From IMG/VR virus record IMGVR_UViG_2526164647_000009: a stretch of DNA of 17,683 nt. One strand, given 5' to 3'. Under the pieces are notes generated by a model that saw only the letters and a list, made by a program, of their open reading frames with translations, searched no databases and was not told the DNA's origin. Below are positions 1 through 16,872 of the stretch, piece after piece (position 1 is the stretch's first letter; each line of letters opens with the position of its first letter). The position numbers and the translations under genes were made by a program. This stretch comes from a virus (Duplodnaviria > Heunggongvirae > Uroviricota > Caudoviricetes).

Positions 1-403
1 TTTCGGCGGGCGTGGGCCAGGCACCCGGCTTCCTTCACCCGGCCCGTTTCGTACAGTACGTTATAACCTGCATAGGCATCAGCCTGCAGTACGCCCTGAT
101 ACTTTGCCAGGTGGAGCTGCGGATGTTCTCCTTTGCGATCTGCCGAATACGCGAACCAGACGGCTGCCGGCAGGGATGAACCCGCATTACGATCATCCCT
201 GACGTATACCCACAGACGACCCGTTTTCGTCTTTCCGTTCCCCGGGGCCAGTACTTTCACCGGAGTGTCATCTGCGTGCACCTTTCCTGCCTCCAGAACA
301 TAGTCATTCAGCGCTATATACAGAGGACGGAGTTTGTCTGCCATTTCTGATACCCTGCGCACCATGGTATTACGGCTCAGCTCCACGCCCTGTCGCGCGT
401 ATA
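1..403 (-). pseudogene. IS66-family transposase (TnpC-like) internal fragment, cut by the window edge on one side and by the IS3-family insertion at 404/405 on the other
   Basis: My own minus-strand translation of 403->3 reads ...[134 protein letters not shown] with no stop. The motifs ([27 protein letters not shown]) are typical of the IS66 TnpC central region. The frame runs straight into the IS terminus at 404, so the gene is interrupted. It is not in the ORF track because it has no stop inside the window. Confidence 0.7.
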
Positions 404-447
404 TTGAGGTGTACTGGCAATAGCGGACACTACCATTTGTTCTTTTT

Positions 448-1266
448 TTAAGCAGCCATCTGATGATATTTTTCCCTGAAGGCTGCCGGGGAGATATTCC
501 CCAGACGAGAGTGACGACGCTGACGATTGTAGAAAATCTCAATGTATTCCCGTATTACTGAGATGGCTTCATCCCGGTTATTAAAACGATAGTGGCTCAG
601 GCTCTCATTTTTCAGCGTTCCCCAGAAGCTTTCCATCGGAGCGTTGTCGTAACAGTTACCTTTACGCGACATTGATGTTTTCAGACCAGACTGCTCCTGT
701 ATGACCCGGTAATCGTATGCGCAGTACTGTGAACCTCGATCAGAGTGGTGGATTAGCCCGGCAGGTGGGCGCTGGCTCCTGAGCGCCATAAACAGGGCTT
801 TACCTGTCAGCTCTTTTGTCATGCGCTCTCCCATGGCGTAGCCGACAATTTCGCACGTATAAACATCTTTGATGCCAGCGAGGTACAACCATCCCTCCTG
901 TGTGGCAACATACGTCAGGTCCGCCACCCAGACCTGATTTGGTGCTGTAGGAGCGAACGTCTGGTTCAGCAGATTTGGCGCAACTGGCAGATTGTGGTTC
1001 GGGTTCGTAGTCGCTCTGAACTTGCGTTTCTGCTTACAGCGTAGCCTCAGCTCCTTACGAAGACGTGCCAGTCGGTCACGACCAACGATGATGCCATTCT
1101 CTGCCAGCTCCGTCTGGAGCCGCCGGGTTCCATATGTTTCGCGAGTGCGGATATGTGCCACCTTAATCTCCAGTTTTAGCCGCTCATCACTTTGTTTTCT
1201 GTCTGAGGGTTCATGCTGTACCCAGTTGTAATAACCGCTCCTGGATACACCAAATACCTGACACAT
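448..1266 (-). CDS. IS3-family transposase OrfB (DDE catalytic domain), IS600-like, copy A
   Basis: The 272-aa ORF has the IS3-family integrase signature ([11 protein letters not shown]...EGWLYLA...HHSDRGSQY...[15 protein letters not shown]). It is in the -1 frame relative to the upstream orfA fragment. It differs from copy B at one residue (Leu32 versus Pro32, base 1172 versus 3113). Confidence 0.9.
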
Positions 1267-1301
1267 CGCTTCAATGGGAAATTGTTGTCGCCATTGTTCG
1301 A

Positions 1302-1482
1302 TTAACGCGTATTTTTCAGCGACTCCTGTGCAAAATACGCTGTTGATTTTTTTAATATATCGCGCTCAAGGCGAGCTTCATTTAACGCCTTACGCAGTTG
1401 CAGAATTTCAGATTCCAGTTCAGCCACCGTGCGGGAACCAGGAGTACCGAGCCCTTTTCTGGCGGCGGTAACCCATTGTCCT
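1302..1482 (-). pseudogene. IS3-family OrfA C-terminal fragment (leucine-zipper part only), IS600-like copy A; the N-terminal helix-turn-helix part is absent
   Basis: The translation ...GQWVTAARKGLGTPGSRTVAELESEILQLRKALNEARLERDILKKSTAYFAQESLKNTR shows a heptad Leu pattern and the YFA motif of IS3-family OrfA C-termini. An A7 run (1347-1353 on the minus strand) sits at the orfA/orfB overlap. The homology ends at about 1482, where the palindrome junction lies. Confidence 0.8.
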
Positions 1483-1487
1483 GAAGG

Positions 1488-1490
1488 CAC
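1488..1490. repeat. CAC, left copy of the 3-bp target-site duplication flanking IS629
   Basis: CAC lies immediately outside the IS629 terminus at 1491 and again at 2797-2799. Removing IS629 plus one CAC restores an open orfA reading frame (cct gaa ggc act tta gga caa tgg = PEGTLGQW). Confidence 0.8.
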
Positions 1491-1532
1491 TGAACCGCCC
1501 CGGGTTTCCTGGAGAGTGTTTTATCTGTGAAC

Positions 1533-2415
<883 letters not shown>

Positions 2416-2419
<4 letters not shown>

Positions 2420-2742
2420 TTTTTCCAGAGGCGGTCGAACTCCGCCTTCGCAAAATAAGCGGAAGCCTGGCGAAGGATATCGTTACTGCGGCGCAGTTCA
2501 CGATTTTCACGCTCCGGCTCTTTCAGACGCTGACGTTCAGCGGTGGTGAGCCCTCCATCACCGCCCCCGGTATCCCGCTCATGCTGGCGACCCCAGACAC
2601 GCAGAGTCTCCGGCGTACAGCCAATCTTTGGAGCAATGGAACAAATTGTCGCCCATTGTGAGTCATATTCGCCCTGACTTTCCAGAACCATACGGACTGC
2701 CCGTTGACGGACTTCGGGGGAAAAACGAGTATTTTTAGTCAT
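2416..2742 (-). CDS. IS629 transposase OrfA (helix-turn-helix and leucine zipper), 108 aa
   Basis: [108 protein letters not shown] matches my memory of IS629 OrfA. Its stop overlaps the orfB ATG (ATGA). It lies 40 bp inside the right-hand inverted repeat. Confidence 0.9.
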
Positions 2743-2796
2743 CCTGTTTACCTCTTTCTCAGGAAGTTTAGTCTCCAGGATTCCCGGGGCGGTTCA

Positions 2797-2799
2797 CAC
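2797..2799. repeat. CAC, right copy of the 3-bp target-site duplication flanking IS629
   Basis: Same trinucleotide as 1488-1490, directly abutting the other IS629 terminus. Confidence 0.8.
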
Positions 2800-2800
2800 T

Positions 2801-2983
2801 TTAGGACAATGGGTTACCGCCGCCAGAAAAGGGCTCGGTACTCCTGGTTCCCGCACGGTGGCTGAACTGGAATCTGAAATTCTGCAACTGCGTAAGGCGT
2901 TAAATGAAGCTCGCCTTGAGCGAGATATATTAAAAAAAGCAACAGCGTATTTTGCACAGGAGTCGCTGAAAAATACGCGTTAA
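2801..2983 (+). pseudogene. IS3-family OrfA C-terminal fragment, IS600-like copy B; the N-terminal part is absent from this window
   Basis: The frame reads LGQWVTAARKGLGTPGSRTVAELESEILQLRKALNEARLERDILKKATAYFAQESLKNTR and stops at 2981-2983. There is no upstream start, helix-turn-helix region or left inverted repeat. Confidence 0.8.
2932..2939 (+). promoter_or_regulatory. A7G (A AAA AAG type) -1 ribosomal frameshift motif at the orfA/orfB overlap of the IS600-like element
   Basis: The A7 run followed by G sits at the point where orfB is open in the -1 frame relative to orfA, which is the standard IS3-family OrfAB fusion mechanism. The mirror motif in copy A (1346-1353, minus strand) has T instead of G after the A7 run. 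Confidence 0.7.
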
Positions 2984-3018
2984 TCGAACAATGGCGACAA
3001 CAATTTCCCATTGAAGCG

Positions 3019-3837
3019 ATGTGTCAGGTATTTGGTGTATCCAGGAGCGGTTATTACAACTGGGTACAGCATGAACCCTCAGACAGAAAACAAAGTGATG
3101 AGCGGCTAAAACCGGAGATTAAGGTGGCACATATCCGCACTCGCGAAACATATGGAACCCGGCGGCTCCAGACGGAGCTGGCAGAGAATGGCATCATCGT
3201 TGGTCGTGACCGACTGGCACGTCTTCGTAAGGAGCTGAGGCTACGCTGTAAGCAGAAACGCAAGTTCAGAGCGACTACGAACCCGAACCACAATCTGCCA
3301 GTTGCGCCAAATCTGCTGAACCAGACGTTCGCTCCTACAGCACCAAATCAGGTCTGGGTGGCGGACCTGACGTATGTTGCCACACAGGAGGGATGGTTGT
3401 ACCTCGCTGGCATCAAAGATGTTTATACGTGTGAAATTGTCGGCTACGCCATGGGAGAGCGCATGACAAAAGAGCTGACAGGTAAAGCCCTGTTTATGGC
3501 GCTCAGGAGCCAGCGCCCACCTGCCGGGCTAATCCACCACTCTGATCGAGGTTCACAGTACTGCGCATACGATTACCGGGTCATACAGGAGCAGTCTGGT
3601 CTGAAAACATCAATGTCGCGTAAAGGTAACTGTTACGACAACGCTCCGATGGAAAGCTTCTGGGGAACGCTGAAAAATGAGAGCCTGAGCCACTATCGTT
3701 TTAATAACCGGGATGAAGCCATCTCAGTAATACGGGAATACATTGAGATTTTCTACAATCGTCAGCGTCGTCACTCTCGTCTGGGGAATATCTCCCCGGC
3801 AGCCTTCAGGGAAAAATATCATCAGATGGCTGCTTAA
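3019..3837 (+). CDS. IS3-family transposase OrfB (DDE domain), IS600-like, copy B
   Basis: The 272-aa ORF is identical to the copy A OrfB except for Pro32. Confidence 0.9.
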   Translation: MCQVFGVSRSGYYNWVQHEPSDRKQSDERLKPEIKVAHIRTRETYGTRRLQTELAENGIIVGRDRLARLRKELRLRCKQKRKFRATTNPNHNLPVAPNLLNQTFAPTAPNQVWVADLTYVATQEGWLYLAGIKDVYTCEIVGYAMGERMTKELTGKALFMALRSQRPPAGLIHHSDRGSQYCAYDYRVIQEQSGLKTSMSRKGNCYDNAPMESFWGTLKNESLSHYRFNNRDEAISVIREYIEIFYNRQRRHSRLGNISPAAFREKYHQMAA

Positions 3838-3882
3838 AAAAAGAACAAATGGTAGTGTCCGCTATTGCCAGTACACCTCAAA

Positions 3883-4188
3883 CTACTCATTGCCAGATGG
3901 GAACTGACCGCAGAACAGGCTGTCGCACAGCAGTTAAAAAATCAGGTGTCAAAAGGAAATCTTATCGATACCGGATTTTGTATTTTTGCCCTTAGTAAGC
4001 TGGCGATGGCTTTATCCAGTACGCTTGACTCCATTCCTTTGTCCATGCAACGACAGTTCCCGGATTTAACGCCGCGTCATATTGATCATCTGAAAATCCT
4101 TATTGCTAAGGGAGCGAATCAGTGCGCGCGTGCGGGGGATAAATTACCGGATTTACTCGATGAATATATCAGAACAACAACTGAGTAA
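3883..4188 (+). pseudogene. nu1: Terminase small subunit (lambda Nu1-like), C-terminal roughly 100 codons only; the 5' part of the gene is replaced by the IS600-like element
   Basis: The translation ...ARWELTAEQAVAQQLKNQVSKGNLIDTGFCIFALSKLAMALSSTLDSIPLSMQRQFPDLTPRHIDHLKILIAKGANQCARAGDKLPDLLDEYIRTTTE aligns with the lambda Nu1 C-terminal region (RHRLTRAQADAQELKN...ETAFCTFVLSRIA...LPLSVQRRFPEL...LSEYIEQSG, from memory). The homology starts exactly at the IS end. The 3' end overlaps the start of A as in lambda. Confidence 0.85.
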
Positions 4189-6088
4189 TATGATGGTGGC
4201 AGTCACTATCGCACTGCAGCCACTGGTCAGGGTATTGCCGGTGACGGCTGTAGAATGGGCCGATCAAAATTATTACCTGCCTAAAGAATCGTCATACGGT
4301 GAGGGGGAATGGAAAACGCTGCCGTTTCAGGTCGCCATCATGAACTGCATGGGCAATGACGAGATTCGTACAGTTAACCTGATTAAATCTGCCCGTGTTG
4401 GTTATACAAAAATGGTGCTTGGTGTGATCGGGTATTTTATTGAGCACAAATCCCGCAACACTCTTCTTTTTCAGCCGACGGACTCAGCTGCTGAAGATTT
4501 TATGAAGTCTCACGTGGAAGCAACAATTCGTGATGTTCCTTGCCTGAAAAAACTTTCTCCCTGGCTGGGCCGGAAACACCGGGATAATACGCTCACACTG
4601 AAGCGTTTTTCCTCTGGTGTGGGGTTCTGGTGTTTGGGTGGTGCTGCTGCCAAAAACTACCGTGAAAAATCTGTCGATGTGGTCTGCTATGACGAACTCT
4701 CCTCGTTTGAACCGGATGTGGAAAAAGAAGGTTCGCCAACACTGCTTGGCGATAAACGTATTGAAGGTTCGGTATGGCCAAAATCCATACGCGGTTCAAC
4801 GCCAAAAATTAAAGGCTCCTGTCAGATTGAAAAAGCTGCGAATGAATCTGCGCATTTCATGCGGTTTTATGTCCCTTGCCCTCATTGCGGGGAGGAGCAG
4901 TATCTGAAGTTTGGCGATGATGCGACGTCGTTTGGCCTGAAATGGGAGAAGGGTAAACCGGAAACGGTGTATTACCTGTGTGAACATAATGGCTGCGTGA
5001 TCCGTCAGTCTGAACTTGATCAGACCGGGGGGCGCTGGATTTGTGACAATACCGGGATGTGGACGCGTGACGGTCTGACGTTTTTCAGTGCTTCGGGTAA
5101 TGAAATTCCGCCGCCGCGCTCCATCACTTTCCATATATGGACGGCGTACAGTCCGTTCACCACCTGGGTACAGATAGTCTGTGACTGGCTGGATGCACTG
5201 AAAGATCCCAACGGCGTGAAAACTTTTGTGAACACCACGCTGGGCGAGACCTGGGAAGAGGCCGTGGGCGAAAAACTCGATCACCAGGTACTGATGGATA
5301 AGGTTGTGCCTTACACGGCAACGGTGCCTGTCCGGGTGGTTTATCTGACGGCGGGCATTGACTCGCAGCGAAACCGTTTTGAGATGTATGTCTGGGGGTG
5401 GGCTCCGGGAGAGGAAGCCTTTCTGGTGGATAAAATCATCATCATGGGACGTCCTGATGAGGAAGAGACGCTGTTACGTGTGGATGCGGCGATCAATAAA
5501 AAATACCGCCATGCAGACGGTACCGAAATGACCATTTCCCGTGTCTGCTGGGATATCGGGGGGATCGATGGCGAAATCGTGTATCAGAGGTCAAAAAAAC
5601 ACGGTGTTTTCCGGGTACTGCCGGTAAAAGGTGCCTCTGTCTATGGCAAGCCGGTGATCACCATGCCGAAAACCCGCAATCAGCGGGGTGTGTATCTGTG
5701 TGAGGTGGGGACGGATACCGCAAAAGAAATTCTCTATGCCCGAATGAAGGCCGATCCCACCCCTGTGAATGAGGCCACATCGTATGCCATCCGCTTTCCT
5801 GATAATCCGGAGATTTTTTCGCAGACAGAGGCACAACAACTGGTGGCGGAGGAACTGGTGGAAAAGTGGGAAAAAGGAAAGATGCGTCTGTTGTGGGATA
5901 ACAAAAAGCGGCGTAACGAAGCGCTGGACTGCCTGGTGTATGCCTATGCGGCATTACGTGTGTCCGTGCAACGCTGGCAACTTGATCTGGCTGTGCTGGC
6001 GGCATCCCGCAAGGATGCAACTGCACAACCGACCCTTGAAGAACTGGCAGCGAAGCTGTCCGGAGGAGTGAATGGTTACAGTCGCTGA
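4160..6088 (+). CDS. A: Terminase large subunit (lambda gpA-like)
   Basis: MNISEQQ...TAVEWADQNYYLPKESSYGEGEWKTLPFQ...SARVGYTKM...KRIEGSVWPKSIRGSTPKIKGSCQIE...CPHCGEEQYLKFGD...FHIWTAYSPFTTWVQIV...FVNTTLGETWEE...KKRRNEALDC is collinear with lambda gpA along its whole length. The start is taken at the ATG aligning with the lambda MNIS start, not the upstream in-frame ATG at 4103. Confidence 0.95.
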   Translation: MNISEQQLSNMMVAVTIALQPLVRVLPVTAVEWADQNYYLPKESSYGEGEWKTLPFQVAIMNCMGNDEIRTVNLIKSARVGYTKMVLGVIGYFIEHKSRNTLLFQPTDSAAEDFMKSHVEATIRDVPCLKKLSPWLGRKHRDNTLTLKRFSSGVGFWCLGGAAAKNYREKSVDVVCYDELSSFEPDVEKEGSPTLLGDKRIEGSVWPKSIRGSTPKIKGSCQIEKAANESAHFMRFYVPCPHCGEEQYLKFGDDATSFGLKWEKGKPETVYYLCEHNGCVIRQSELDQTGGRWICDNTGMWTRDGLTFFSASGNEIPPPRSITFHIWTAYSPFTTWVQIVCDWLDALKDPNGVKTFVNTTLGETWEEAVGEKLDHQVLMDKVVPYTATVPVRVVYLTAGIDSQRNRFEMYVWGWAPGEEAFLVDKIIIMGRPDEEETLLRVDAAINKKYRHADGTEMTISRVCWDIGGIDGEIVYQRSKKHGVFRVLPVKGASVYGKPVITMPKTRNQRGVYLCEVGTDTAKEILYARMKADPTPVNEATSYAIRFPDNPEIFSQTEAQQLVAEELVEKWEKGKMRLLWDNKKRRNEALDCLVYAYAALRVSVQRWQLDLAVLAASRKDATAQPTLEELAAKLSGGVNGYSR

Positions 6089-6275
6089 ACTGCAGGCGCT
6101 GCGTCAGGCGCGCCTTGATTTATTAACCGGTAAACGGGTTGTGTCGGTACAGAAAGACGGTCGCAGGATCGAATATACGGCAGCGTCCCTGAATGAGCTT
6201 AACCGTGCGATCAACGATGCGGAGTCGGTTCTGGGTACGACCCGACGCCGCCGACCGCTGGGAGTGAGGTTATGA
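6072..6275 (+). CDS. W: Head-tail joining / head completion protein (lambda gpW-like)
   Basis: The 67-aa product ...LTGKRVVSVQKDGRRIEYTAASLNEL...RRRRP resembles lambda W (...[20 protein letters not shown]...). There is a GGAGGA ribosome-binding site at 6062-6067, and the position between A and B is conserved. Confidence 0.9.
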   Translation: MVTVAELQALRQARLDLLTGKRVVSVQKDGRRIEYTAASLNELNRAINDAESVLGTTRRRRPLGVRL

Positions 6276-7865
6276 AACGAACGCCTGTCCTGATTGATGT
6301 GAACGGCGTTCCGCTTCGTGAGAGTCTCAGCTACAACGGAGGCGGCGCAGGATTTGGCGGGCAAATGGCAGAGTGGTTACCACCGGCGCAGAGTGCCGAT
6401 GCGGCCCTGTTGCCTGCATTGCGTCTGGGGAATGCCCGGGCAGATGATCTGGTGCGCAATAACGGTATCGCGGCTAATGCGGTGGCCCTGCATAAGGATC
6501 ATATCGTCGGGCACATGTTTCTTATCAGCTACCGTCTGAACTGGCGTTGGCTGGGGATGCGGGAGACCACGGCAAAAAGTTTTGTCGGGGAGGTGGAAGC
6601 AGCCTGGTCGGAATACGCAGAAGGAATGTTTGGCGAGATCGACGTGGAAGGGAAACGCACGTTTACGGAATTTATCCGTGAAGGGGTGGGCGTGCATGCC
6701 TTTAACGGCGAAATCTTTGTGCAGCCGGTCTGGGATACGGAAACCACGCAGTTATTCCGTACGCGTTTTAAAGCCGTGAGTCCGAAACGGGTGGACACGC
6801 CAGGACACGGTATGGGGAACCACTTTCTGCGGGCCGGGGTTGAGGTCGATCGGTATGGGCGGGCGATTGCGTACCATATCTGTGAGGATGATTTTCCGTT
6901 CTCTGGTGCCGGACGCTGGGAGCGGATCCCGCGTGAGCTTCCCACCGGGCGTCCGGCCATGCTGCATATTTTTGAGCCGGTGGAGGACGGGCAGACCCGT
7001 GGGGCCAATCAGTTTTACAGCGTAATGGAGCGGATGAAGATGCTGGACTCCCTGCAGGCCACGCAGCTTCAGTCGGCCATTGTGAAGGCGATGTATGCAG
7101 CCACAATCGAAAGTGAACTTGATACCGAAAAGGCATTTGAATATATCGCGGGGGCACCGCAAGGTCAGCAGGATAATCCGCTTATTAATATTCTGGAGAA
7201 GTTCACCCGCTGGTATGACACGAATAACGTGACGCTGGGCGGTGTTAAAATTCCGCACCTTTTTTCCTGGCGATGCGCTGAACCTGCAGACAGCGCAGGA
7301 TTCAGACAATGGATTTTCGGCGCTTGAACAGGCGCTGCTGCGGTATATTGCAGCCGGTCTTGGCGTTTCCTACGAACAGTTGTCCCGTGATTACTCGAAG
7401 GTCAGTTACTCAAGTGCCCGTGCCTCCGCCAATGAGTCGTGGCGCTATTTTATGGGGCGGCGAAAATTTATTGCGGCCCGGCTGGCCACGCAGATGTTTT
7501 CCTGCTGGCTGGAAGAGGCGCTTCTTCGGGGGATTATTCGTCCGCCACGGGCGCGTTTTGATTTTTACCAGGCGCGTTCAGCCTGGTCACGGGCAGAGTG
7601 GATTGGCTCCGGAAGAATGGCCATTGACGGGCTCAAGGAGGTCCAGGAATCGGTGATGCGCATTGAGGCCGGACTGAGCACGTATGAGAAAGAACTGGCA
7701 CTGATGGGCGAAGATTATCAGGACATTTTCCGCCAGCAGGTCAGGGAATCCGCAGAGCGCGAAAAAGCCGGACTCTCACGTCCGGTGTGGATAGCCCAGG
7801 CGTATCAGCAGCAGATAGCGGAGAGTCGCAGGCCGGAAGAGGAGACAACATCACGTGAGACGTAA
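6272..7865 (+). pseudogene. B: Portal protein (lambda gpB-like) with a +1 frameshift at the T6 run 7260-7265
   Basis: ORF 6272-7327 carries the N-terminal 330 or so residues (...GGGAGFGGQ...ARADDLVRNNG...IFEPVEDGQTRGANQFYSVME...SAIVKAMYAATIESELDT...GGVKIPHLF). ORF 7242-7865 carries the remainder (FPGDALNLQTAQDSDNGFS...LLRYIAAGLGVSYEQLSR...WIGSGRMAIDGLKEVQE...). Both align with lambda B. The total span is 3n+1. Confidence 0.9.
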
Positions 7866-13822: not shown

Positions 13823-14160
13823 CGCGGGAAATGCAGTTTGTCATGCGGCTTGCCCGGGAGTTCCGGCGGGCAGACTGGCGGCGGATGCTGTCGGATATGT
13901 CGGCCACTGAGCTTGGTGAGTGGGGCGATTATTTCCGGATGCAGAGCTTCAGTGATGTGTGGATGGATGCGCAGTTTGCCTCGCTGAAGGCATTGATCGT
14001 GAGAATGGTGTCCGGCAGCAGCGATGCTGCGGTGGCTGATTTCAGCCTTTTACCGGAAGAGAACGGGATACCGGAGCGAACGGACGAAGAACTGATGCAT
14101 CTTGGGGAAGGTATTTCCGGAGGTGTGCGTTATGGACCAGATAGCCAACCTGGTCATTGA
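13798..14160 (+). CDS. T: T portion of the tail assembly chaperone G-T fusion (lambda gpT-like), in the -1 frame relative to G; expected to be expressed only as a G-T fusion by ribosomal frameshifting
   Basis: The -1 frame is open from 13798, directly after its own stop at 13795-13797, and overlaps the last 22 nt of G. It reads ...GKVLTREMQFVMRLAREFRRADWRRM.... The G/T arrangement matches lambda. The only slip candidate in the overlap is GGAAAAG at 13810-13816. Confidence 0.8.
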   Translation, partial: GADAGKVLTREMQFVMRLAREFRRADWRRMLSDMSATELGEWGDYFRMQSFSDVWMDAQFASLKALIVRMVSGSSDAAVADFSLLPEENGIPERTDEELMHLGEGISGGVRYGPDSQPGH

Positions 14161-16872
14161 TTTGGGGATTGATGCGGCAGAGTTTAAAAATGAAATTCCC
14201 CGTATCAAAAACCTTCTGAATGGTGCAGCCAGCGATGCAGAACGGTCTTCTGCCCGTATGCAGCGTTTTATGGAGCGTCAGACTCAGGCGGCCCGGCAGA
14301 CAATGCAGGCGGCTTCTTCGGCTGCAACAGCAGCATCAGCCCATGCGCAGACGGTGGAGAAGAATGCACGGGCTCATGAACGCATGGCCCGTGAGGTGGA
14401 ACAAACCCGTCTGCGCGTGGATGCCCTGAATCAGAAAATGCGCGAGGAACAGGCGCAGGCCAGGGCGGCTCAGCTGGGGGTAAGCAGTGCTGCAGAAGTG
14501 TATATCCGCAAAATGGAGCGGGCAGGAAAAGCCACACATTCGCTGGGGCTGAAAAGTGCGGCAGCCCGGCGGGAGCTGGGGGTGTTAATCAGTCAGATGG
14601 CGCGCGGCAATTTTGGTGCGCTGAGGGGATCCGGGATAACGCTGGCTAACCGTGCCGGATGGACTGGCGCACTGATGTCGCCGAAAGGCATGATGACTGG
14701 CGGCGTTATTGGCGGACTTGTCGCGGCGGTCCTGGGTCTGGGTAAAGCCTGGCATGACGGCCGGAAGGAGGGCGAGAAATTTAACCGTCAGCTGGCGCTG
14801 ACGGGACATTATGCCGGTGTCACTGTCGGGCAGTTGTGGAAACTCAGCCGGGCCATATCCGGGAATGGTATCACGCAACATGCGGCAGCCGGTGCGCTGG
14901 CACAGGTGGTGGGCAGTGGGGCATTTCATGGAAACGATATTGGTATGGTGGCGAAAGCTGCCGCACAGATGGAGCGATCGGTTGGCCAGTCGGTCAGCGA
15001 TACCATAAATCAGTTTAAGCGGCTGAAGGATGATCCTGTAAATGCCGCGAAGGCGCTGGACAATGCGCTGCATTTTTTGAATGCCACTCAGCTTGAGCAG
15101 ATACGCGTCCTTGGGGAGCAAGGGGCGGTCCAGTGATGCGGCCCGGATCGCCATGTCTGCGCTGGCAGAGGAAACCGGTAAACGCACATCTGATATTGAT
15201 AATAATCTCAATGCGCTGGGTAGTACGCTGCAAACCTTGTCTGACTGGTGGAAGCAGTTCTGGGATGCGGCCATGAATATTGGTCGTGAAGACTCGCTGG
15301 ATGCGCAGATCGATGCGTTACAGGAAAAAATTCAGCGCGCGAAAAAATATCCGTGGACAAACGCCTCCACACAGGTGGAGTACGATCAGCAGCGTCTTAA
15401 CGATCTTCAGGAGAAAAAACGCCGGAAGGATTTGCAGGATGCAAAAGCGCAGGCAGAACGGAATTACCAGGAGCAACAGAAACGCCGGAATGCTGAAAAT
15501 GCCGCGCTGAACCGGATGAATGAAACGGAAGCTGCACGACATCAGCGGGAAATTGCGCGTATTAATGCCATGCAGTACGCCGACCAGGCTGTCAGGGATG
15601 CGGCGATACAGCGTGAAAATGAACGTTACGAAAAAGCCATTAAGAAAAATACACGGGCAACCCGTAATGATGAGGCCACCCGGTTATTGCTGCAGTACAG
15701 TCAGCAGCAGGCACAGGTGGAAGGGCAGATTGCTGCTGCCAGACAGTCAGCAGGCATTGCCACTGAAAGGATGACTGAAGCGCATAAACAGCTTCTGGCC
15801 CTGCAGCAGCGCATCAGCGACCTGGACGGGAAAAAGCTGACGGCAGATGAAAAGAGTGTGCTGGCCCGTAAGAATGAGCTGATTCAGGCGCTGACGCTGC
15901 TGGATGTGAAACAGCAGGAGCTGCAGAAACAGACAGCGCTTAACGACCTGAGAAAAGAAAACGGTTCAGCTGACCAGCCAGCTGGCAGACAAAGAACGTG
16001 CACTGCGTGAGCAGCACAATCTGGATATTGCCACTGCAGGTATGGGGGATAAGCAGCGGCAGCGCTACCAGGCACCGTTGCGCATCCGGCAGGAATACCG
16101 GCAACAGTTGCAACAGCTTGAGAATGACAGTCGCCAGAAAGGCACTTACGGGACGGAGGACTACCGGAGGGCTGAGGAGGTGCTGAAGGGGAGCCTGAAG
16201 CGACAACTGAATGAAAACAAACGCTACTGGCAGGAACTGGAAGTGGCGCAGGGCGACTGGAAAAACGGTGCCATGCGGGCGTTTCAGAATTTTACGGCGG
16301 ATGCGGATAATGCGGCGGGAACGGCAGAACAGATGTTTACAGTGGCATTCAGCAGTGCCGGTAATGCACTGGCGACATTCTGTACCACCGGTAAGCTGAA
16401 TTTTAAATCCTTCACCTCTTCCCTGTTGTCAGATATGGCCAGAATTATGGCACAGATGGCCATGATGCAGGCGGTAAAGGGCGTCGGTTCTTTATTCGGC
16501 TTCACGACTAATGCTGATGGCGGTGTTTACCAGTCTGCTGATTTGAGTCGCTACAGTGGCACGGTGGTTAACCGTCCGACGTTTTTTGCTTTTGCAAAAG
16601 GCGCGGGTGTGATGGGGGAAGCGGGACCTGAAGCCATTCTGCCACTGCGTCGCGGTGCTGATGGTAAGCTGGGGGTTGTGGCGGATACTGGTGGTTCAGG
16701 CATGGTGATGTTTGCCCCGCAGTACAACATTGAGATCAATAACGACGGCACGAACGGGCAGATAGGTCCGGCTGCCCTGAAGGTGGTTTATGACCTCGGG
16801 AAAAAAGCGGCCGCGGACTTTATGCAACAGCAGGCCCGTGATGGTGGCCGGTTAAGTGGAGCATACCGGTAA
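14132..16872 (+). pseudogene. H: Tail tape measure protein (lambda gpH-like) broken by two +1 frameshifts, within 15081-15134 and within 15952-16010
   Basis: Three consecutive ORFs in frames 2, 0 and 1 together align with lambda H from N-terminus to C-terminus (MDQIANLVIDLGIDAAEF... to ...INNDGTNGQIGPAALKVVYDLGKKAAADFMQQQARDGG, compared with lambda ...VINNDGTNGQIGPAALKAVYDMARKGARDEIQTQMRDGG). The total span is 2741 nt (3n+2). A GGAGG ribosome-binding site lies 8 nt before the ATG at 14132. Confidence 0.9.

Follow-up and report, generated by a model that had tools for sequence, protein, structure and literature searches.

A truncated nu1-type terminase gene and an absent cos region beside IS600 in a lambda-like prophage of Shigella flexneri

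Insertion sequences and head genes of the locus

The window, meaning the whole stretch of DNA that was analysed (17,683 bp), is the entire draft contig AFGV01000031.1 of assembly GCA_000213675.2, which is given as Shigella flexneri K-218 in a published strain table (PMC6397287). Two of its tape-measure ORFs (334 and 276 aa) are on record for this contig and no other, while a third, of 309 aa, had no match. The contig carries the head gene block of a lambda-like prophage, preceded by several insertion sequences. The present layout is that of a non-working element: the right part of an inverted IS600, an IS629-like element, the right part of a second IS600, codons 69-169 of a nu1-type terminase small-subunit gene and then gpA.

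The left-hand IS600 copy (positions 405-1482, minus strand; here R') was delimited by BLAST and runs from IS600 position 1264 down to 187, with its right inverted repeat (IRR) ending at 405 and orfB at 448-1266; the left inverted repeat (IRL) and the 5' part of orfA are lacking. The right-hand copy (2797-3880, plus strand; here R) corresponds to IS600 positions 181-1264 with 99.4% identity to a complete 1,264-bp element, which was taken as reference from an E. coli chromosome that has it annotated as IS600. Its orfB lies at 3019-3837, its IRR ends at 3880 with the terminal sequence CACCTCA, and it too possesses no IRL. Both are thus fragments holding approximately positions 181/187-1264 and the IRR, not complete elements with two ends. 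In each of them orfB (272 aa) is open while orfA is without its first ~39 codons, and therefore no complete OrfAB could be produced from either. Copy R occupies the identical site in the sibling loci L005-L007, L010, L011, L013, L014 and L021-L030.

Between the two IS600 fragments lies an IS3-family element of 1,306 bp (1491-2796, minus strand) bounded by 25-bp inverted repeats (1491-1515 and 2772-2796), with 99.5% identity to elements annotated 'IS3 family transposase'. Its ends suggest a putative IS629, and it is called IS629-like here; no paper quoting the end sequence of IS629 was found in the literature. It is nested in IS600, with CAC present on both sides, the CAC at 2797-2799 repeating IS600 positions 181-183, and is therefore a normal insertion into IS600 with duplication of CAC. 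The orfB of this element (1533-2419, minus strand) appears to be broken into two ORFs that overlap each other (2063-2419 and 1533-2201), and this copy probably cannot make its own transposase. Immediately to its left, the 12 nt TCCTGAAGGCAC (1479-1490, plus strand) equal forward IS600 positions 172-183 and are all that survives of the left portion of the IS600 borne by nu1.

The contig opens with a fragment of a transposase gene of ISSfl3, an IS66-like element (1-404, minus strand), positions 1-405 being 99.8% identical to a sequence annotated 'IS66-like element ISSfl3 family transposase'. Extensions of 11-12 nt of IS600 matches into the ISSfl3 flank were considered as a sign of target preference; inspection of the flanks showed these to be a ranking effect among thousands of copies, and the idea was discarded.

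Downstream of the insertion sequences, the terminase large-subunit gene gpA is intact (4160-6088, plus strand; 642 aa; Pfam GpA_ATPase and GpA_nuclease). Its start at 4160 and the nu1 stop codon at 4186-4188 give an overlap of 29 nt, placing the small-subunit gene directly upstream of A. An identical gpA protein is encoded in the intact prophages L008, L009 and L012, as well as in many S. flexneri chromosomes. The portal gene (6272-7865, plus strand) is frameshifted by an extra T at 7260 (7255-7260, T6 versus T5 in intact relatives), leaving a 351-aa fragment in all S. flexneri copies seen, compared with 530 aa in L008, L009 and L012. The tape-measure gene (14132-16872) has a 303-bp in-frame deletion relative to L005 and L008, located at 14459-14466 between 8-bp repeats and common to L006, L007 and L013. 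Unique to the contig are two single-nucleotide insertions in this gene, an A at 15120 and a G at 15957, together with three substitutions, all of them possibly draft sequencing errors.

The nu1 remnant and the cos region

Past the IS600 boundary at 3880/3881, the window runs colinear with intact lambda-like E. coli prophages. In a comparison with E. coli FDAARGOS_943 (L001), the first 521 nt are 100% identical, and 6.5 kb align at 98.8% identity. In L001, positions 5800-6309 hold a gene of 510 nt and 169 codons, annotated 'terminase small subunit' and located upstream of the large-subunit gene. With this gene as reference, window position 3881 is nu1 nucleotide 203; the remnant (3881-4188, plus strand) consists of nucleotides 203-510, that is codons 69-169 and the stop codon, and opens with the AAC target duplication of IS600. 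Nucleotides 1-202 are absent, and with them codons 1-67 and one base of codon 68. A TTG-initiated ORF of 107 aa (3865-4188, plus strand) joins five IS-encoded residues to Nu1 residues 68-169; an earlier note on this DNA had described an ORF that starts in the IS end and reads into the nu1 remnant, and this ORF does exist.

Pfam analysis of the 107-aa product gave a match to Phage_Nu1 (PF07471; E = 5.6e-19), with ORF residues 10-88 covering profile positions 85-163 of 164, and the C-terminal 95 residues of the remnant align with residues 86-180 of lambda Nu1 at 45% identity. The conserved C-terminal region of the family, which serves self-association and gpA binding, is thus kept in the window copy. 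The N-terminal helix-turn-helix DNA-binding domain, which recognizes cosB, is not found, codons 1-67 being absent from the window. As judged from these comparisons, the window copy is a remnant and represents no working member of the Phage_Nu1 family.

The earlier note had taken the start of Nu1 homology at the IS600 end as the mark of the break. Homology starting there is by itself no proof of truncation, because that of the intact 169-aa protein starts at about the same place: its similarity to Nu1 of Pfam, lambda and phi80 sets in no earlier than about residue 64-73 (about 71-73 for the Pfam and lambda-type homology), and the coincidence with the IS end is partly one of domain boundaries. 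The truncation is proven because intact 169-aa homologues exist for comparison; such homologues also occur in isolated phages of the PhiR12 series, at 94% identity. The loss of all but some 100 C-terminal codons at the IS600 end is accordingly upheld, codons 69-169 of a 169-codon gene being kept. The alignment to lambda nu1 that had been proposed for locating the break does match residues 86-180, but the break point is set by the intact 169-aa gene instead. The same homologues rule out that 3883-4188 is a full-length small subunit of another family.

The N-terminal 67 codons of the reference gene (L001, 5800-6000) are unlike the Pfam Nu1 profile and the Nu1 proteins of lambda and phi80, whereas the rest of the gene matches them, the protein being a domain mosaic. 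The IS600 insertion point nearly coincides with the N-terminal domain boundary of the small subunit in this phage group. When PDB sequences were searched by phmmer with the intact 169-aa protein, the matches were chance ones only and included no structure of a Nu1 DNA-binding domain; the fold of the N-terminal part is therefore a putative one.

Upstream of the intact gene, 230 nt of L001 align with lambda cos. A cosN-like equivalent of the 12-nt cohesive end, GGGCGGGAGCGG, is located at L001 5575-5586, about 225 nt upstream of nu1, and is followed by the conserved CTATTTATGAAAATTTT block shared with lambda cos and then by three CCGGACAT-type repeats. This cos site upstream of nu1 is present in L001, L008, L012 and L013 and not in the window. 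BLAST of 651 nt comprising the L001 cos region and the nu1 5' part gave only chance matches to the window, and a pattern search of the window for a cosN-like site with up to three mismatches found none. The expected cos region is thus missing upstream of nu1, as the earlier note had proposed.

That note had also concluded that the prophage cannot start packaging unless cos and an intact nu1 exist elsewhere. For this gene block, the absence of both the cis-acting site and the specificity domain bears this out. Since cosN, cosB and the DNA-binding domain of the small subunit are absent and the portal gene is frameshifted, the block can neither start nor complete packaging. The defect in packaging initiation is supported in itself, but it is not the only lesion, with the portal gene frameshifted too.

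Sibling alleles and the origin of the deletion

The history of the locus was examined through a component map of ten sibling loci and a table of diagnostic junction strings over 30 loci. Three classes of allele were distinguished. In the intact class (L001, L008, L009 and L012) the order is lysis genes, cos, nu1 and A. In the split-but-complete class (L013 and L021-L030) the lysis region is followed by a complete, inverted IS600 with a GTC duplication, 917 bp, cos, nu1 nucleotides 1-205, IS600 positions 1-183, the IS629-like element, IS600 positions 181-1264 and nu1 nucleotides 203-510; L005, L014 and L010 have the same arrangement with one extra nested IS. In the deleted class (L006, L007 and the window) both left IS600 parts and all DNA between them are absent.

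The split class is that of a simple IS600 insertion into nu1: AAC flanks the insertion in L013, with the nu1 5' part and cos directly on the other side of IS600, and L001 provides the empty site. Only the right-hand copy of this 3-bp target duplication is left in the window. The ancestral junction string was defined as CTCTTCCTGAAGGCACTGAACCGCC, and among the 30 loci all those possessing it also carry the nu1 5'/IS600 junction and the cosN-like site, L011 excepted. The deletion junction string CCATTGTCCTGAAGGCAC is found, over the same loci, only in the window, L006 and L007. At this junction CCATTGTCCT is followed by GAAGGCAC, inverted IS600 position 187 being joined to forward position 172 at TCCT, a 4-nt direct repeat that supplies microhomology at the deletion endpoints (1479-1482 in the window). 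The marker base A at 1346 in R' is also present in the upstream prophage IS600 of L013 and in R' of L006, and R' of the window is therefore tied to the prophage allele series.

These alleles show the following series of events. One IS600 inserted in codon 68 of the 169-codon nu1-type gene, duplicating AAC, and a second, in the opposite orientation, inserted about 1.5 kb upstream, following the lysis genes, and duplicated GTC. The IS629-like element then entered the nu1-borne IS600 at positions 181-183 with duplication of CAC. Finally, a deletion of 1,866 bp brought position 187 of the inverted upstream copy next to position 172 of the IS600 in nu1. The order of these steps (IS600 insertions, nesting of the IS629-like element, deletion) is established by the alleles of the sibling genomes. 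A scheme of two IS629 insertions at the same site followed by recombination was dropped, as the real precursor is seen in L013. The deleted segment comprised the left ends of the two IS600 copies, 917 bp of phage sequence, the cos region (383 bp) and nu1 nucleotides 1-205. The earlier note had attributed the loss of the nu1 5' part to the IS insertion: the 5' part is indeed gone, but the insertion itself cost nothing, and it was the later 1,866-bp deletion that removed it.

In the precursor, the IS600 left ends form inverted repeats of 183 bp with one mismatch, separated by a spacer of 1,505 bp (L013, 5644-7148) that holds cos and the nu1 5' part, and each TCCT repeat is only a few nucleotides away from the foot of the potential hairpin stem. 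This position suggests replication slippage across the IS600 left-end hairpin as the likely mechanism of the deletion, as judged from the geometry.

Two further rearrangements were observed among the siblings. L011 (UAUS01000007.1, 7100-7180), from another S. flexneri genome, has lost the same cos-nu1 5' region independently and shows another junction, TGAGG joined to TGAGGTAGCC; there the 5 nt TGAGG, left over from the end of the upstream IS600, come after the lysis region, and the nu1-borne IS600 begins right behind them with its left end. The complete chromosomes L006 and L007 share a 27-bp deletion in R' at 6746-6747 (equivalent to window positions 880-904), which the window does not have.

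The left end of the contig calls for caution, as it may fuse plasmid and chromosome sequence through the IS600 repeat. The ISSfl3/IS600 junction was found in 49 plasmids, nearly all of them S. flexneri virulence-plasmid-type replicons, in which IS600 splits ISSfl3 close to ospI, and beside the prophage in none of the chromosomes examined. Window positions 1-1171 are 100% identical to plasmid NZ_CP026791.1, and both lack 129 bp of ISSfl3 that are found next to the IS600 end in typical plasmids. Positions 1-404 are linked to the prophage through at least 770 bp of IS600 that are identical in both contexts. The link may be an assembly chimera formed via this repeat or a real IS600-mediated recombination with a plasmid. 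The deletion model must assume at least one further event or an assembly misjoin here, since the left flank of R' is ISSfl3 in the window and the lysis region in L006 and L007. The finding on nu1 and cos is unaffected by this question.

That all or some of the arrangement in the window stems from wrong assembly of a draft contig rich in repeats is unlikely. Such an origin would fit a contig that begins inside an ISSfl3 repeat and crosses three more IS copies, its plasmid-like first 1,171 positions and the two single-nucleotide insertions that set its tape-measure gene apart; however, the IS600/nu1 junction, the deletion junction and the portal frameshift are identical in complete chromosomes of other strains. 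As the key junctions are confirmed elsewhere, any artefact is limited to the link between ISSfl3 and R' (roughly 1-1171) and perhaps the tape-measure indels.

Even less probable is that the nu1 5' half and cos were moved elsewhere in the K-218 genome by inversion or translocation between IS600 copies, the prophage being merely split. The two inverted IS600 copies of the window could have mediated such an event, and the ISSfl3 flank, foreign to the prophage, indicates that some rearrangement or misjoin occurred. Against it, an inversion between inverted IS600 copies restores complete copies and cannot yield two facing right parts with a 12-nt left-part remnant between them, and the junction is also found in the complete chromosomes L006 and L007 with the lysis region directly adjoining R'. 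The exact 70-aa 5' fragment of nu1 was identified in 135 index blocks and on 74 contigs; 1,526 blocks contain the identical gpA, and at least 343 contigs carry the 107-aa 3' remnant. At each of the ten places listed, the 3' remnant comes immediately after the 5' fragment within one prophage, and none of these ten is one of the deletion-type chromosomes CP097828.1 and LR213452.1. A simple inversion bounded by the IS copies, which the earlier note had given as an example of what would overturn its reading, was rejected as the source of the junction on geometry, and in the ten places listed the 5' fragment occurs only in the adjacent, ancestral arrangement. The sequences thus point to a nu1 5' half that is deleted and not displaced, its absence from K-218 being read from the deletion junction of the contig.

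The 70-aa 5' fragment is annotated 'protein convertase' in S. flexneri (L013, 6944-7156, and equivalents; P0018), a misleading name. The public 'terminase small subunit' CDS of 107 aa and the 'protein convertase' CDS of 70 aa are two halves of one broken gene.

Fate of the remnant and comparison with known systems

Many S. flexneri records (at least 343 contigs) list the TTG ORF as a CDS, and the earlier note had suggested that a truncated Nu1 could be expressed from IS-borne signals. A consensus scan of positions 1-4400 on both strands found no sigma-70-like promoter, compared with about four in shuffled sequence; the scan is a simple one, and weak or non-sigma-70 transcription lies beyond its reach. 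No Shine-Dalgarno sequence is present in the 20 nt before the TTG (acaaatggtagtgtccgcta). Both IS600 copies of the window are without the left end, which is the end carrying the element's own promoter, the transposase genes of the IS629-like element face away from the nu1 remnant, and the head genes of the contig are no longer preceded by the phage late promoter and lysis region. The suggestion finds no support, the sigma-70-like site, the Shine-Dalgarno sequence and the IS600 left ends all being missing, and the 107-aa ORF is best read as a pseudogene remnant that is presumably not expressed.

A functional role for the truncated protein is extremely improbable. It would require the Nu1 C-terminal remnant, without its DNA-binding domain, to be made at a low level by read-through or gpA-coupled translation and to act, for example, as a decoy binding the large terminase of related superinfecting cos phages; the host would then gain a small degree of phage interference. 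Such a role would be in keeping with an open ORF that overlaps an intact gpA and that hundreds of records list as a CDS, and with the retention of the region aligning with residues 86-180 of lambda Nu1, which includes the gpA-binding end. The lack of expression signals and of the IS600 promoter end speaks against it, as does independent further decay at the locus in L011, L005 and L010; the identity of the remnant among strains reflects clonal descent and gives no signal of selection.

The locus is thus very probably a genetic scar in a defective lambda-like S. flexneri prophage, formed by successive IS600 and IS629-like insertions and then a deletion. IS-driven prophage decay is ordinary and already known, the damage seen here is shared by many sequenced strains, and hundreds of public records already include an annotation of the broken gene. 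A literature search for IS600 together with terminase in S. flexneri found nothing relevant. The importance of the locus beyond annotation is small. Tools that score a prophage as intact from its terminase, portal and capsid genes would be misled by this S. flexneri block, which is unable to package DNA. The locus is also a tidy worked case of stepwise IS-driven decay, because intermediate alleles persist in other strains.

Compared with phage lambda, intact relatives of this prophage share the gene order cos, nu1 and A, with nu1 overlapping A, and their cos region aligns with that of lambda, the conserved CTATTTATGAAAATTTT block included. The 169-aa protein of this phage group differs from lambda Nu1 in its N-terminal ~70 residues, and in the window both the N-terminal part and cos are gone altogether. 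Cryptic prophages of Shigella and E. coli K-12 are known to carry remnants of Nu1 homologues, such as nohA/nohD. The present locus resembles IS-decayed lambdoid prophages of these hosts in that IS insertions, deletions and frameshifts have disabled a morphogenesis block, with the genes next to it still nearly identical to those of intact phages; there is no fundamental difference, except that here the steps can be ordered via intermediate alleles in other strains.

The proposed slippage mechanism has its counterpart in the 'nearly precise excision' of composite transposons of the Tn10/Tn5 type, a hairpin-promoted deletion between inverted IS copies. Common to both are inverted IS arms flanking a unique segment, short direct repeats at the endpoints, brought together by the stem, and the loss of the loop and most of the arms. 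At this locus, in contrast, each arm is only the left end (183 bp) of an IS600 that inserted independently of the other, limited to that length because the IS629-like element interrupts one of the two copies, and the product retains two long right parts.
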